Source of the DNA: an uncultured Verrucomicrobiae bacterium
Lineage (GTDB): Bacteria > Chlamydiota > Chlamydiia > Chlamydiales > Rhabdochlamydiaceae
Direction: 5' to 3'
NCBI GenBank assembly: GCA_963718565.1
Contig: OY970364.1
Coordinates: 2,016,001 to 2,080,000 of the forward strand
DNA: 64,000 nucleotides
The stretch's first letter is position 1. The number at the start of each line of letters is the position of its first letter. Shown one piece after another: positions 42,636-59,927 of the stretch. The notes under the pieces are model-generated. The model saw only the letters and a list, made by a program, of their open reading frames with translations. It did no database searches and was not told the DNA's origin. The position numbers and the translations under genes are program-made.

Positions 42636-45600
42636 ATGCAATTAACTTTGCTTATTTTTTTTCTAGTTGCTTTTGTAGCGCCAGCATATTCAGAGATATT
42701 GCCGAGCAATCCACAGCCGCCATCCGGATCAAGTTCAATAGGTTCAACTGGGCCAACAGGACCAATGGGGGATCCCGGCGCTGTGGGTCCAGCAGGTGCA
42801 ACTGGTGATTCCGGTGCTACGGGCCCGGTCGGTCCCACCGGACCTTCGGATGGGCCCACGGGAGCAACCGGCCCAATAGGACCAACAGGAGATTTTGGCG
42901 CAACAGGCCCAGTTGGTCCTGCCATACCAGGTCCAATGGGCCCTACTGGGCCTTCGGGTGGGGGGCCCACAGGGGCAACCGGACCGACAGGGCCAACAGG
43001 AGATCCTGGCACAACTGGATCGACGGGACCAATAGGAGATTTTGGTTCAACCGGTCCGGCGGGGCCAACAGGCTCGATTGGGTCGGCAGGTCCGACAGGA
43101 GATTTTGGTTCAACCGGTCCGGCGGGGCCAACAGGCTCGATTGGGTCGGCAGGTCCGACAGGAGATTTTGGTTCAACCGGTCCGACAGGACCAACAGGCT
43201 CGATCGGGTCGGCAGGTCCGACAGGAGATTTTGGTTCAACCGGTCCGACAGGACCAACAGGCTCGATTGGGTCGACAGGTCCGACAGGAGATTTTGGTTC
43301 AACCGGTCCGGCGGGGCCAACAGGCTCGATCGGGTCGGCAGGTCCGACAGGAGATTTTGGTTCAACCGGTCCGACAGGACCAACAGGCTCGATTGGGTCG
43401 GCAGGTCCGACAGGAGATTTTGGTTCAACCGGTCCGGCGGGGCCAACAGGCTCGATCGGGTCGACAGGCCCAACGGGAGATTCTGGCACACCCGGTCCGA
43501 CAGGACCAACAGGCTCGATTGGGTCGGCAGGTCCGACAGGAGATTTTGGTTCAACCGGTCCGGCGGGGCCAACAGGCTCGATCGGGTCGACAGGCCCAAC
43601 GGGAGATTCTGGCACACCCGGTCCGACAGGACCAACAGGCTCGATTGGGTCGGCAGGTCCGACAGGAGATTTTGGTTCAACCGGTCTGACGGGACCAACA
43701 GGCTCGATTGGGTCGACAGGTCCGACAGGAGATTTTGGTTCAACCGGTCCGACAGGACCAACAGGCTCGATTGGGTCGACAGGTCCGACAGGACCAACAG
43801 GCTCGATTGGGTCGGCAGGTCCGACAGGACCAACAGGCTCGATTGGGTCGGCAGGTCCGACAGGAGATTTTGGTTCAACCGGTCCGGCGGGGCCAACAGG
43901 CTCGATTGGGTCGACAGGTCCGACAGGACCAACAGGCTCGATTGGGTCGGCAGGTCCGACAGGAGATTTTGGTTCAACCGGTCCGGCGGGGCCAACAGGC
44001 TCGATCGGGTCGACAGGCCCAACGGGAGATTCTGGCACATCCGGTCCGACAGGACCAACAGGCTCGATTGGGTCGGCAGGTCCGACAGGAGATTTTGGTT
44101 CAACCGGTCCGACGGGACCAACAGGCTCGATCGGGTCGGCAGGTCCGACAGGAGATTTTGGTTCAACCGGTCCGACAGGACCAACAGGCTCGATTGGGTC
44201 GGCAGGTCCGACAGGAGATTTTGGTTCAACCGGTCCGACAGGGCCAACAGGCTCGATCGGGTCGACAGGACCAACGGGAGATTTTGGTTCAACCGGTCCG
44301 ACAGGGCCAACAGGCTCGATCGGGTCGACAGGACCAACGGGAGATTTTGGTTCAACCGGTCCGATGGGACCAACAGGGCCTACCGGTTTGATAGGATTGA
44401 CAGGGCCAACAGGCTCGACGGGCTCGACAGGGCCAACGGGTCCGACCGGCCAAACAGGTTCGACTGGTTCAACAGGACCGACAGGGCCTACCGGTTTGAT
44501 AGGATTGACAGGGCCAACAGGCTCGACGGGCTCGACAGGGCCAACGGGTCCGACCGGCCAAACAGGTTCGACTGGTTCAACAGGACCGACAGGGCCTACC
44601 GGTTTGATAGGATTGACAGGGCCAACAGGCTCGACGGGCTCGACAGGGCCAACGGGTCCGACCGGCCAAACAGGTTCGACTGGTTCAACAGGACCGACAG
44701 GGCCTACCGGTTTGATAGGATTGACAGGGCCAACAGGCTCGACGGGCTCGACAGGGCCAACGGGTCCGACCGGCCAAACAGGTTCGACTGGTTCAACAGG
44801 ACCGACAGGGCCTACCGGTTTGATAGGATTGACAGGGCCAACAGGCTCGACGGGCTCGACAGGGCCAACGGGTCCGACCGGCCAAACAGGTTCGACTGGT
44901 TCAACAGGACCGACAGGGCCTACCGGTTTGATAGGATTGACAGGGCCAACAGGCTCGACGGGCTCGACAGGGCCAACGGGTCCGACCGGCCAAACAGGTT
45001 CGACTGGTTCAACAGGACCGACAGGGCCTACCGGTTTGATAGGATTGACAGGGCCAACAGGCTCGACGGGCTCGACAGGGCCAACGGGTCCGACCGGCCA
45101 AACAGGTTCGACTGGTTCAACAGGACCGACAGGGCCTACCGGTTTGATAGGATTGACAGGGCCAACAGGCTCGACGGGCTCGACAGGGCCAACGGGTCCG
45201 ACCGGCCAAACAGGTTCGACTGGTTCAACAGGACCGACAGGGCCTACCGGTTTGATAGGATTGACAGGGCCAACAGGCTCGACGGGCTCGACAGGGCCAA
45301 CTGGTTCAACGGGACCAACAGGCTCGACAGGAGCGACGGGGCCAACGGGACCAACAGGCTCGACAGGAGCGACGGGGCCAACAGGACCAACGGGGCCGAC
45401 AGGTCCAAGAGGTGTTGCGGACTTTGCTACGATTATCCTTAATGGAAACACAACAGCGATAACCGTGGGTAACAATACATCGGTTCCATTTCCAACTACA
45501 AATCCTGTGATTGTTGCAGGGGGATCAAAAATTAGTGTCCCTTCAACAGGAACGATAGAAATCGCTGATACGGGTTTTTATCAAGTCTCCTTTGGAGTCA

Positions 45601-45857
45601 TGCAATCGACAGCCAATAGTGCAAGGTTTCAATTGAGTATTAATGGAGCTACTGCTCCTTCGCAAATGGTGCTTGATTTCACTTCGGCTACTGGGAACAC
45701 TTTGATGTCAAGCCTTACGACTATTGTGCAAATTACAGTCGATCCTTCGACTATTATTGTAGAGAATATTAGCGGAGGCAGTCGAACAATCAACAACGGT
45801 TCGGCTACAGCCGCAGGGGGGCCCGCAGCATTTGTCACTATTTTTAAACTTCACTAA
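42636..45857 (+). CDS. secreted collagen-like protein (Gly-X-Thr repeats, beta-rich C-terminal domain, BclA-like architecture)
   Basis: Leader [19 protein letters not shown]; ~890 aa of Gly-X-Y; ~145-aa C-terminal domain with DTGFYQVSF. Confidence 0.88.
43036..44365 (+). repeat. mosaic array of ~63-bp units ([21 protein letters not shown] and variants)
   Basis: GGAGATTTTGGTTCAACCGGT recurs mostly at 63-bp spacing. Confidence 0.9.
44377..45300 (+). repeat. ~8.5 apparently identical 108-bp tandem units
   Basis: GGCCTACCGGTTTGATAGG starts at 44377, 44485, 44593 ... 45241. Confidence 0.92.
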
Positions 45858-45886
45858 TCGACAAGAAATTTAAGCAGCTTTGAATA

Positions 45887-58812: not shown

Positions 58813-58979
58813 AAGAAATCTCCCTATATCTCGTGAAACCGACTCCCTCTTCAATGGCTAAAGTCTAGTTTGAGTTGTTTTCATGTCTCGTGAGAGACGC
58901 AAGTGTTTCACAGATTATGATGGCAAGGAAAATTTGGTCAACATAATATTGAGAGATGCGAATGGTACTTATGACTTGG

Positions 58980-59927
58980 ATGAAAATAGGACTATGTTTT
59001 CTAGTCTGTTGTTTTTTTGGTGTCGAAGAGCTTTCTGCAAAAATTCGGATTTTGACATTTCATTACAATCGTCCAGATTTTCTTGAACTTCAATATGCGA
59101 CCTTCAAACAATTTATTCTCGATGATTACGAAGTCATTGTCTTTAATGATGCAATTGATCCACATTACGAAAAATTAATCAGCGATGTTTGTCAAAAGCA
59201 CGGATGGCAATGCGTCCGTTATGAGCCCTCCTGGCATGAAACCAATCCATTGAATGAAAAAATTAGAATGGAGGTGAATACTTCACAGAAAAACAGTTTT
59301 TTCTTATTTCCTCTTGAAGATGGATTACCTTCTCTCAAGGCGATTTCTCAACAATGCAGTATCCGTCATTGTCACGTCATTCAATATGCCCTCGATCATT
59401 TTGGGTATTCTCATGATGATATTGTTGTCATCATGGATGCAGATGTTTTTCCGATTAAGCCGACTAGTGTGAAAGAGTTGTTAAAAGATCTGCCTTTGGT
59501 AGGCATCGACAGTGAGTTCAAATACATGCATTATGTGTGGGTGCCTTTTATTGCTTTCGACCCTAAAAGACTTCCAAACATTAAAGAACTTCAATTCCAT
59601 GTGGATTTGATTGACGATATCTTGTGTGATACAGGATCCCATTCCTATCATTATTTAAAAGATCATCCTGAAGTCAACTATCGATTGTATCCTCGACGCA
59701 CAGATGAGGATTTTTTCCCTTGGGATCTCAATACTTTTGCAAAATTCGGATTCTTCCATTCAGAATTGACGAGGATTTCATGGCCTATTTCTATGGAATT
59801 TTATATCGATTATCATTTCGTTCACTATTGCGGTGGTTCAGCGGATGCTCATCCTCCCAAAAAACATCAAGCCATCTTTGACTTAATCCGATGTTGTCTT
59901 CCTGATACTCATCAAGTAAAGTCTTAA
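58980..59927 (+). CDS. secreted GT-A-like hypothetical protein
   Basis: Signal peptide; YNRPDFLELQ, VFNDA, MDADVF, DTGS; start uncertain (58956 possible). Confidence 0.6.
   Translation: MKIGLCFLVCCFFGVEELSAKIRILTFHYNRPDFLELQYATFKQFILDDYEVIVFNDAIDPHYEKLISDVCQKHGWQCVRYEPSWHETNPLNEKIRMEVNTSQKNSFFLFPLEDGLPSLKAISQQCSIRHCHVIQYALDHFGYSHDDIVVIMDADVFPIKPTSVKELLKDLPLVGIDSEFKYMHYVWVPFIAFDPKRLPNIKELQFHVDLIDDILCDTGSHSYHYLKDHPEVNYRLYPRRTDEDFFPWDLNTFAKFGFFHSELTRISWPISMEFYIDYHFVHYCGGSADAHPPKKHQAIFDLIRCCLPDTHQVKS

Follow-up and report, generated by a model that had tools for sequence, protein, structure and literature searches.

Does a chromosomal island of an uncultured soil bacterium affiliated with the Rhabdochlamydiaceae (Chlamydiota) encode a collagen-like surface fibre together with the enzymes that glycosylate it? 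The question arises from a stretch of 64,000 nucleotides (hereafter the window; all coordinates refer to it unless stated otherwise) covering positions 2,016,001-2,080,000 of a single-contig genome of 2.28 Mb (GenBank assembly GCA_963718565.1, contig OY970364.1; genome coded G000), in which a gene for a secreted collagen-like protein lies among genes for glycosyltransferases (GT) and methyltransferases. A sequence-only reading had attributed to these genes the formation of a glycan-coated fibril layer, and all the genes it listed are present at the positions it assigned to them. Judged from gene content, protein architecture, conservation of the cluster and joint presence or absence among relatives, the island probably, albeit not with high assurance, encodes a BclA-like collagen fibre and the enzymes decorating it. 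The collagen gene and its parts, delimited from sequence, are the following:

42636..45857, + strand: collagen-like fibre protein of 1073 amino acids (aa; Pfam Collagen, E 5e-121)
42636-42692, + strand: signal-peptide-like part
~42741-45419, + strand: G-X-Y part (collagen triplets)
45423-45854, + strand: BclA-like head

The G-X-Y part comprises 293 triplets in three runs, with Thr at Y in 203, Pro at X in 129 and Ser at X in 100 of them. The helix is devoid of Lys, the two Lys residues of the whole protein residing at neither a counted X nor a counted Y position. G-X-Y triplets begin ~16 residues after a Sec-type signal-peptide-like N-terminus and are followed by the head, a non-collagen tail of 144 residues. 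On the DNA level, a 63-bp unit is repeated in ~21 copies and a 108-bp unit in 8.9 copies at 99% matches. Fibre length varies strongly among close relatives, since the collagen of the same-genus genome G092 (locus L136, 8336-14369) contains 620 G-X-Y triplets (Thr at Y in 603) and is about twice as long as the present one. Elsewhere in the genome, Pfam Collagen matches just one further sequence, a 112-aa open frame outside the window (G000:C1:2128920-2129096). Scored against the NCBIfam model adhesin_Lcl (NF046116), the collagen reached 391 bits, which is below the equivalog cut-off of 500 and driven by the repeats.

The head is the part by which the protein can be compared with the Bacillus exosporium protein BclA. 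A profile of 10 chlamydial heads retrieved five Bacillus BclA chains in a PDB search (E 8.6e-7 to 2.6e-6, ~108 of 142 positions), and the present head shows 35-52% identity to its counterparts in relatives and conservation at core positions. A homotrimer is predicted for it (ipSAE 0.96 versus 0.00 for the best of 3 controls), the model runs sharing at least 92% of contacts at a partner pLDDT (predicted local distance difference test) of at least 92. In calibration, 20 of 30 proteins whose solved structures are pairs of one chain attained this trimer mark, compared with 1 of 23 whose solved structures are single chains; because BclA trimers have already been solved, the pass may reflect likeness to them instead of providing independent support. 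Word-index protein searches with the head (residues 925-1073; head alignment) yielded no matches, which is weak evidence, and a search of viral contigs, by a method sensitive to close relatives only, detected no relative of the head. The top solved-structure match of the head profile, ranking above the BclA chains, was 9h38_A (E 6.1e-7, 148 residues, nearly full length), deposited as 'Flagellar hook-length control protein FliK', an odd name for a BclA-like head. A BclA-like architecture of the collagen, i.e., a G-X-T helix plus a BclA-like, predicted trimeric head, is supported by these data, and to this extent the BclA analogy drawn by the sequence-only reading stands; its rhamnose part does not (see below). 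The protein is termed BclA-like and not BclA, because a Sec-type signal stands where the exosporium-targeting domain would be (no search for the Bacillus targeting motif was made in the collagen N-terminus).

The genes accompanying the collagen gene are:

34830..36011, + strand: GT92-family glycosyltransferase (Pfam Glyco_transf_92, PF01697, 110.3 bits versus a cut-off of 23)
46352..47920, - strand: PROP1, secreted beta-propeller with C-terminal beta-sandwich (AlphaFold 2 model, pLDDT 89.9)
47995..49575, - strand: PROP2, a paralog 38% identical to PROP1 (sequence comparison)
49803..50954, + strand: GT2-TPR glycosyltransferase with signal-peptide-like N-terminus (Pfam GT2, PF00535, 49 bits versus 23.3, plus TPR)
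50987..52003, - strand: GH130-like beta-propeller, 338 aa, signal-peptide-like N-terminus (Pfam GH130, PF04041, 19.1 bits, cut-off 26)
52004..54103, - strand: 699-aa fusion of GT2-like, TPR and a GH130-like C-terminal half, signal-peptide-like N-terminus
54100..55083, - strand: O-methyltransferase-like protein, 327 aa (fold match only)
55094..56041, - strand: GT25 a, signal-peptide-like N-terminus (Pfam GT25, PF01755, 38.3 bits versus a cut-off of 24)
56017..56706, - strand: Methyltransf_24 O-methyltransferase, 229 aa, without signal peptide (Pfam, 68.2 bits versus 26.3)
56703..57650, - strand: GT25 b, signal-peptide-like N-terminus (Pfam GT25, 34.7 bits versus a cut-off of 24)
58956..59927, + strand: GT2-like (GT-A-like) protein, 323 aa, signal-peptide-like N-terminus (language-model features alone)

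Whether these genes belong together was assessed in ~400 genomes from across the phylum (head scored in 401, 699-aa protein in 400); the ortholog threshold for the 699-aa protein (E below 1e-80) and the co-occurrence tally were set by this analysis. All relatives of island genes that were found are uncultured metagenome-assembled genomes (MAGs). The head was detected in 51 of 401 genomes (31/89 in family f1, 11/69 in f7, 5/46 in f6, 2/23 in f3 and 1/5 in f16) and 699-aa orthologs in 54 of 400. Both occur in 35 genomes, the head only in 16, the ortholog only in 19 and neither in ~330. Co-occurrence of GT and collagen genes in relatives, named beforehand as a check, is thus apparent: 35 of the 51 head-positive genomes have the fusion ortholog, versus 19 of the ~349 head-negative ones. 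Kinship among the sampled genomes, which are not independent, inflates these counts, and the table is to be taken as descriptive.

Physical linkage was found to be widespread. In 17 other genomes, from 10 genera of families f1 and f7, head and 699-aa ortholog share a contig at a distance of no more than ~25 kb, and the addition of G270 (f6) and G227 (f31), in which Thr-rich collagens are located directly beside the 699-aa ortholog, extends linkage to 12 genera of 4 families. Four few-contig genomes with the ortholog and no head match all hold many Pfam Collagen matches in large open reading frames (ORFs); hence, all 12 of 12 few-contig genomes with the ortholog possess large collagens. The four comprise G270 and G227, G205, in which the collagens are 40 kb from the 699-aa ortholog, and G237 (see below). 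When 20 collagen/enzyme neighbourhoods were compared against the window proteins for synteny, a recurring set emerged that consists of collagen, GT92, 1-4 PROP copies, GT2-TPR, the GH130-like protein, the 699-aa fusion, the 327-aa methyltransferase-like protein, two or three GT25s and two Methyltransf_24 paralogs, while gene orders and strands differ between neighbourhoods. The closest association is that of GT92: in 7 of the 20 neighbourhoods, its ORF follows on the strand of the collagen gene, starting 0-18 bp beyond the collagen stop.

A second sampling used the GH130-like alignment as anchor in species-representative genomes. It yielded 128 relatives, of which 78 loci were kept; 41 of these are at least 15 kb long, and many contigs are short. 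By their titles, the MAGs with these 78 loci are Chlamydiae or members of its families, 'uncultured bacterium' or (mis)titled Verrucomicrobia, with a single exception (titled Bacteroidetes, 37% identity). Neighbours counted within 10 kb of the GH130-like gene were:

GT25: 44/78 loci
699-aa type: 38/78 loci
Methyltransf_24: 36/78 loci
GT2-TPR: 24/78 loci
327-aa type: 24/78 loci
collagen-like ORF (at least 20 triplets): 16/78 loci, and 14 of the 41 loci of at least 15 kb
GT92: 14/78 loci
PROP: 9/78 loci
rmlC: 0/78 loci

Every collagen-like ORF within this distance is Thr-dominated at Y (e.g., 394/433 and 347/360 triplets). Further recurrent neighbours that are absent from the window comprise a 257-aa family without Pfam match (20 loci), an inverse-autotransporter-like barrel (14), FkbM methyltransferases (11 and 8), GT10 fucosyltransferase-like proteins (9), DUF1796 (9), RXYLT1_C-like proteins (7) and pyruvyl transferase (5). 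Of these, the FkbM, GT10-like, RXYLT1-like and pyruvyl transferase families are taken as additional decorating enzymes, and the barrel belongs to the outer membrane. None of the families of Wzx, Wzy, WaaL, ABC-transporters or polyprenyl-phosphate transferases recurs among the 78 loci.

Several of these observations weigh against a collagen-specific function of the enzymes. According to the counts per 78 loci, the enzyme module is more widespread than detectable collagen neighbours, with collagen-like ORFs beside only 16 of the anchors, even among loci of at least 15 kb beside only 14 of 41, and with GT92 beside only 14; short contigs and assembly breaks at the collagen repeats explain part of that gap, not necessarily all of it. 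No strong 699-aa ortholog was found in 16 of the head-positive genomes, the opposite combination occurs in 19, and the co-occurrence table overstates the association, because related genomes are not independent. The collagens of G237 lie 1.4 Mb from the enzyme module, and in G092 collagen and enzyme modules reside on different contigs. Two assignments rest below the family thresholds, namely that of the head, which scores 30.2 bits (34.6 in the genome scan) against Pfam BclA_C (PF18573; cut-off 38), and that of the GH130-like protein. Finally, GT25 members of Haemophilus and Neisseria act on lipo-oligosaccharide.

The unequal spread of module and collagen would be expected if the GT/methyltransferase module built another glycoconjugate (e.g., the lipo-oligosaccharide outer core, a capsule-like glycan or the glycans of other envelope proteins such as PROP) and the collagen were but a neighbour at a hot spot. 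Besides the abundance of GT25 and Methyltransf_24 at the anchored loci, the remote collagens of G237 and the known lipo-oligosaccharide substrates of GT25s, this explanation can draw on a genome that makes dTDP-rhamnose and GDP-mannose for some glycan, and on the unrelated genes that G126, a genome of the same genus, carries at the same variable chromosomal site (see below). It is nevertheless considered unlikely, given that the module is repeatedly linked to Thr-rich collagens in 4 families although the gene orders have been rearranged, that large collagens are present in each of the 12 few-contig genomes with the 699-aa ortholog, and that GT92 is nearly contiguous with the collagen gene. Moreover, the recurrent families of the loci include neither a flippase or polymerase nor a ligase or initiating transferase, the closest enzymes to the GT2 domain are protein and peptide glycosyltransferases, and the island enzymes possess signal-peptide-like N-termini, unlike cytoplasmic core glycosyltransferases and the six other GT2 genes of the genome.

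With decoration of the collagen remaining the preferred reading, the individual enzymes can be ranked as to their possible roles. GT92, the nearest solved relative of which is the plant galactan synthase 8d3t (E 3e-5), is by its sequence and position the best candidate for an enzyme acting directly on the collagen; its start is probably further in, near 35100, just upstream of a signal-peptide-like hydrophobic segment. GT2-TPR has its nearest solved relatives among protein- and peptide-glycosylating GT2s (SunS, E 3.3e-10; GmaR, E 1.1e-9; ThuS-like), scores 53 bits against the NCBIfam SunS equivalog (cut-off 350) and retains an intact catalytic DXD motif (DAD[DE] in 13 of 13 aligned sequences). 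In the 699-aa fusion, whose N-terminal half is 24% identical to GT2-TPR (E 3e-22) and whose C-terminal half is 28% identical to the GH130-like protein over 159 residues, the DXD position is degenerate (SPE here; DAD in 3 of 13 orthologs). The sequence-only reading had announced a GH130/GT91-like propeller, of which the GH130 likeness is retained: the profile finds the beta-1,2-oligomannan phosphorylase 9fj8 (E 4.9e-4) and a GH130 mannoside synthase (E 0.014). As this match covers just the last ~75 residues, i.e., the last blade, of GH130 structures and the Pfam score of 19.1 bits falls short of the cut-off of 26, the protein is named GH130-like only. A GH130-like relative of 26% identity (residues 30-330, E 4e-16 against candidate stretches) was also noted on a single giant-virus MAG contig (L140, 6122 bp), which leaves the formerly suggested link to giant viruses thin.

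Both GT92 and GT25 are mainly galactosyltransferase families, and the two GT25 genes of the island are the only ones in the genome. Their assignment to the collagen galactosyltransferase type is not supported: the sole PDB sequence match of GT25 a is a weak one to human COLGALT1 (E 0.01), and the hydroxylysine route of COLGALT-type enzymes cannot apply, because the helix contains no Lys. The 323-aa protein encoded beyond the porin gene has no Pfam family; its designation as GT-A-like persists insofar as language-model features place it nearest to GT2 clusters (score 0.96-0.97). Its type was found in 4 of the 78 GH130-like loci, and two copies 53% identical to it adjoin the 699-aa ortholog in G092. 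The gene is located between porin and sctT in G000 only, the gap between these two genes measuring only 214-220 bp in G126 and G392, and it is an accessory island member beyond the porin.

The 229-aa protein is a class I O-methyltransferase of the Methyltransf_24 family, clear by family score, and the 327-aa protein resembles such enzymes by fold match. The 229-aa protein also scores 24.3 bits against RMNT_CmcI (cut-off 23.2), and a second Methyltransf_24 paralog with a signal peptide is present in relatives. For the 327-aa ORF, neither a Pfam match nor, by profile, a PDB sequence match was obtained; the best folds matched by its model (pLDDT 68.5) are caffeoyl-CoA/catechol O-methyltransferases (E 7e-7, template modelling (TM) score 0.55-0.59 on target). 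Its orthologs begin with a signal peptide, and in the present, over-long ORF the hydrophobic segment is found at residues 58-80.

PROP1 and PROP2 (~520 aa each) are convergent with the collagen gene and have counterparts between collagen/GT92 and GT2-TPR in relatives. They match no Pfam family, and their profile has no PDB sequence match. The top folds for PROP1 are the seven-bladed lectins PLL/PHL of Photorhabdus (E ~3e-10, TM 0.70 on target, 13-15% identity, root mean square deviation ~5.5 A). Since glycoside hydrolases and sialidases score nearly as well, 'lectin-like' is to be understood as a lead.

A feature shared by nearly all enzyme families of the island is an N-terminus with a charged stretch, a hydrophobic core of 10-15 residues and small residues, which is displayed by GT2-TPR, the GH130-like protein, the 699-aa fusion, both GT25s and the 323-aa protein. 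Orthologs from other genera show the same pattern, followed by a conserved mature N-terminus, and it is also seen in the 327-aa type, in GT92 and in the second Methyltransf_24 paralog of relatives. Calls of signal peptides relied on a hydropathy threshold, compared against the genome background, and on visual inspection of orthologs. With longest-ORF starts, the threshold was passed by 9 of 12 island proteins (the true starts of GT92 and of the 327-aa ORF being uncertain), compared with 18% of 1405 genome ORFs and none of the six other GT2 ORFs of the genome. Provided that these signals are genuine, the catalytic domains would be exposed to the periplasm or the space beyond it, where nucleotide sugars and S-adenosylmethionine (SAM) are not normally available in bacteria. 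The genome has no match to SAM synthetase, and the organism must therefore import SAM; GalU is not among its four nucleotidyltransferase matches, and 4-5 TLC-family nucleotide transporters are encoded. From export signals, transporters and the missing SAM synthetase, the tentative proposal can be derived that Sec-exported Leloir-type glycosyltransferases and SAM-dependent methyltransferases modify the exported collagen in the periplasm or the host vacuole at the expense of host-derived nucleotide sugars and SAM crossing the envelope of this metabolite-importing parasite, a possibility that is at present rather doubtful. Such a pathway would be a bacterial counterpart of glycosylation in the eukaryotic secretory pathway, drawing largely on families familiar from eukaryotes (GT92, GT25, GT10-like and RXYLT1-like).

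The same conserved export signals, and the fact that GT92, GT25, GT10-like and RXYLT1-like families are best known from eukaryotes, could alternatively indicate that the exported glycosyltransferases remodel glycoconjugates of the host or its vacuole, the collagen being a separate, unglycosylated adhesin of the Lcl type, as its repeat-driven, sub-threshold score on the Lcl model might hint at. However, a Sec signal by itself does not deliver a protein into the host, and this explanation gives no reason for effectors to stay linked to a collagen across families; nor does it account for the near-contiguity of GT92 and collagen genes. It is thus regarded as improbable.

If the collagen is indeed the acceptor, the following sequence of events may be envisaged. 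The Sec pathway would export the collagen, and its jelly-roll C-terminal head would trimerise and nucleate a triple helix of ~290 triplets with Y mostly Thr. The co-inherited glycosyltransferases (GT92, the SunS/GmaR-like GT2-TPR, the GT25s, the GH130-like proteins and the 323-aa protein) could then O-glycosylate Thr stepwise, with the GT25s and GH130-like proteins extending the glycan and the two methyltransferase-like proteins O-methylating it. The outcome would be a fibre with a glycan coat at or around the cell surface, which PROP1 and PROP2 may bind or anchor as lectin-like partners. Thr-linked sugars may, in addition, stabilise a helix that is without hydroxyproline. The identities of the sugars, the surface location and the developmental stage at which the fibre would be formed are likewise part of what we infer from the island; a location on the infectious form and a role in adhesion or shielding would be plausible.

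In Bacillus, the BclA gene lies near rml, GT and methyltransferase genes, and genes for dTDP-rhamnose formation also lie upstream of the collagen gene in the window, as the sequence-only reading had noted:

26581-29070: rmlC/D/B, 13.6 kb upstream of the collagen gene

The rmlABCD set is complete in the genome, with rmlA far off at genome position 89518. A link of rhamnose to the island was nevertheless rejected. The gene rmlC occurs in 277 of 401 genomes irrespective of collagen status, including clades without head match (g3, 8/9; f9, 29/35), is absent from all 78 anchored neighbourhoods and is close to the island only within genus g1, i.e., by genus-level coincidence. It was not found in G130, G222, G050 and G058, which carry the 699-aa ortholog. 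Because its distribution ignores collagen status, the rhamnose analogy to BclA is unsupported, and rhamnose is possible as one of the sugars.

The extent of the island became apparent from its flanking genes:

36204..37553, - strand: second Legionella_OMP-type outer-membrane beta-barrel gene (Pfam, E 6.5e-28)
38233-40059, - strand: IS4/DDE transposase, 608 aa (Pfam DDE_Tnp_1, E 1.4e-13)
40186-41862, + strand: IS4/DDE transposase, 558 aa (Pfam DDE_Tnp_1, E 3.6e-14)
57670..58854, - strand: Legionella_OMP porin, conserved chromosomal flank (Pfam; present without the island in G126)

The island reaches from 34830 to 59927, minus the two insertion sequence (IS) copies and the flanking porin, and occupies a variable site. 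Its left border was moved to GT92 at 34830, because GT92 recurs in the unit and is here cut off from it by the porin-like gene and the IS elements. Island membership of this second porin-like gene, one of several Legionella_OMP-type porin genes in the window according to Pfam, is uncertain; a fragment 52% identical to it adjoins the collagen in one other genus (L036). Both transposases are divergent, sit between GT92/second porin and collagen and are not found at this position in the compared relatives. They display near-identical Pfam match patterns, and ~770 bp of non-coding sequence separate the second one from the collagen start.

For the right-hand side, G126 (same genus, 2 contigs, 96% complete) served as comparison. 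This genome has no head match and no strong 699-aa ortholog, only a weak GT2-TPR-type match and two small collagen matches, and shows the order sufBCDS, 3.3 kb of unrelated genes, porin and sctT/R/L, where G000 harbours ~23 kb between sufS and porin. It follows that the island is an insertion or deletion at a fixed variable site and that the porin at 57670-58854, formerly listed as an island gene, represents its flank; the porin adjoins sctT in the island-less G126 as well as in G392 and G092. The cargo of G126 at this site (L134, 14498-17747) comprises a 314-aa ORF and a 705-aa ORF with leucine-rich repeats. As different species carry different cargo there, the sufS-porin junction constitutes a variable spot. 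The grouping of collagen, GT and methyltransferase genes into one island is borne out by their linkage in at least 12 genera of 4 families and by their joint absence from G126.

The two IS copies directly upstream, which part the collagen gene from GT92, also raise the question of whether the collagen ORF represents a repeat expansion that is decaying or not expressed, the island having lost its function in this genome. The 108-bp repeats, being 99% identical, point to a recent expansion, and the cluster of the same-genus genome G259 is full of frameshifts. The frame of 1073 codons is nevertheless open, with signal peptide and head intact, all island enzymes are encoded by intact ORFs, and the head retains conserved core positions at 35-52% identity to its relatives, such that loss of function here appears very improbable. 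In G259 itself (L035, C1:1952000-1971999), the whole island is present in many short frames, with PROP copies, both GT25s, the GH130-like gene, the 699-aa gene and one methyltransferase gene broken; either the island is decaying as a unit in this organism or the assembly contains many indel errors.

Further genes of the window include sctL/R/T of a type III secretion system at 60-64 kb and a sufB gene in two overlapping ORFs (30004-30969, SufBD_N plus first core part; 30956-31444, the rest), the split of which could be due to a frameshift, a sequencing error or a real division; the counterpart in G126 matches residues 1-307 of the first ORF. The type III secretion genes, the several Legionella_OMP-type porins and the TLC-family transporters of the genome mark the stretch as chlamydial in content. 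An ORF of 943 aa (18384-21215, - strand) matches no Pfam family at E 1e-4 or better. A search of sequencing runs detected no RNA data holding the stretch, and five DNA runs from soil or freshwater contain small shares of it (0.11-0.22).

The literature searched, the scope of which excluded most subscription journals and supplements, yielded no account of collagen-like proteins in Chlamydiae; the word 'collagen' has no occurrence in PMC9723776, and 'Chlamydi' has none in the review on prokaryotic collagens PMC8968730. If the island indeed encodes a glycosylated fibre, these bacteria would possess a coat resembling the nap of spores, candidate adhesins for host range would be named, and fibres of the BclA type would extend from spores of Firmicutes to a Gram-negative intracellular phylum. 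GT92, GT25, GT2-TPR and the GH130-like protein would be candidates for Thr-directed collagen glycosyltransferases, a kind of enzyme of which no member has, to our knowledge, been characterised in any organism. Should the enzymes act outside the cytoplasm on host donors, a new mode of bacterial protein glycosylation and of metabolic parasitism would result.

Known systems resemble individual traits of the island. The collagen-like protein Lcl of Legionella pneumophila is likewise secreted by a Gram-negative intracellular bacterium of amoebae, but its head domain differs, the present collagen scores below the Lcl cut-off, and we know of no dedicated glycosylation island for it. Cuticle collagen of the vent worm Riftia, in which galactosylated Thr at Y stabilises the triple helix without hydroxyproline, shares Thr at Y with the present protein, but is an animal collagen from the secretory pathway. 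The best fold matches of PROP1, PLL/PHL of Photorhabdus, include entries complexed with O-methylated sugars, fucose or rhamnose; PROP differs from them by its extra C-terminal beta-sandwich. Mimivirus, a parasite of amoebae, possesses collagen-like proteins and its own glycosyltransferases, L230 and R699 being its collagen-modifying enzymes (portions of PMC9546862 and PMC8968730), and human COLGALT1 is a GT25 enzyme (a portion of PMC12003778). The mimiviral enzymes act on hydroxylysine, whereas the helix here is without Lys. In Chlamydia trachomatis, host UDP-glucose enters the inclusion lumen, where secreted bacterial enzymes make glycogen (a portion of PMC4829429); this sets a precedent for the extracytoplasmic pathway considered above, in that a host nucleotide sugar is used outside the bacterial cytoplasm, but the enzymes of C. 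trachomatis travel by type III secretion and form glycogen instead of a glycoprotein.

The nearest counterpart is the exosporium nap formed by BclA of Bacillus anthracis/cereus (BclA is also known from Clostridioides difficile). Common to both are the G-X-T helix, a head that is here BclA-like and predicted to be trimeric, and the presence of GT and methyltransferase genes near the collagen gene. The present system belongs to a Gram-negative, obligately intracellular phylum without spore or exosporium, its collagen bears a Sec-type signal in place of the exosporium-targeting N-terminus of BclA, the head scores below the BclA_C cut-off, and its enzymes are of the GT92, GT25, GH130-like and GT2-TPR families, most of them with export signals and with rml not specifically linked. 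BclA is a glycoprotein carrying a tetrasaccharide of three rhamnoses and the O-methylated sugar anthrose (portions of PMC6947953, PMC6222408 and PMC8968730), and glycosylation is thought to aid its hydration (PMC8968730). Overall, the system encoded by the island would resemble the BclA nap in its working, without being a member of it.

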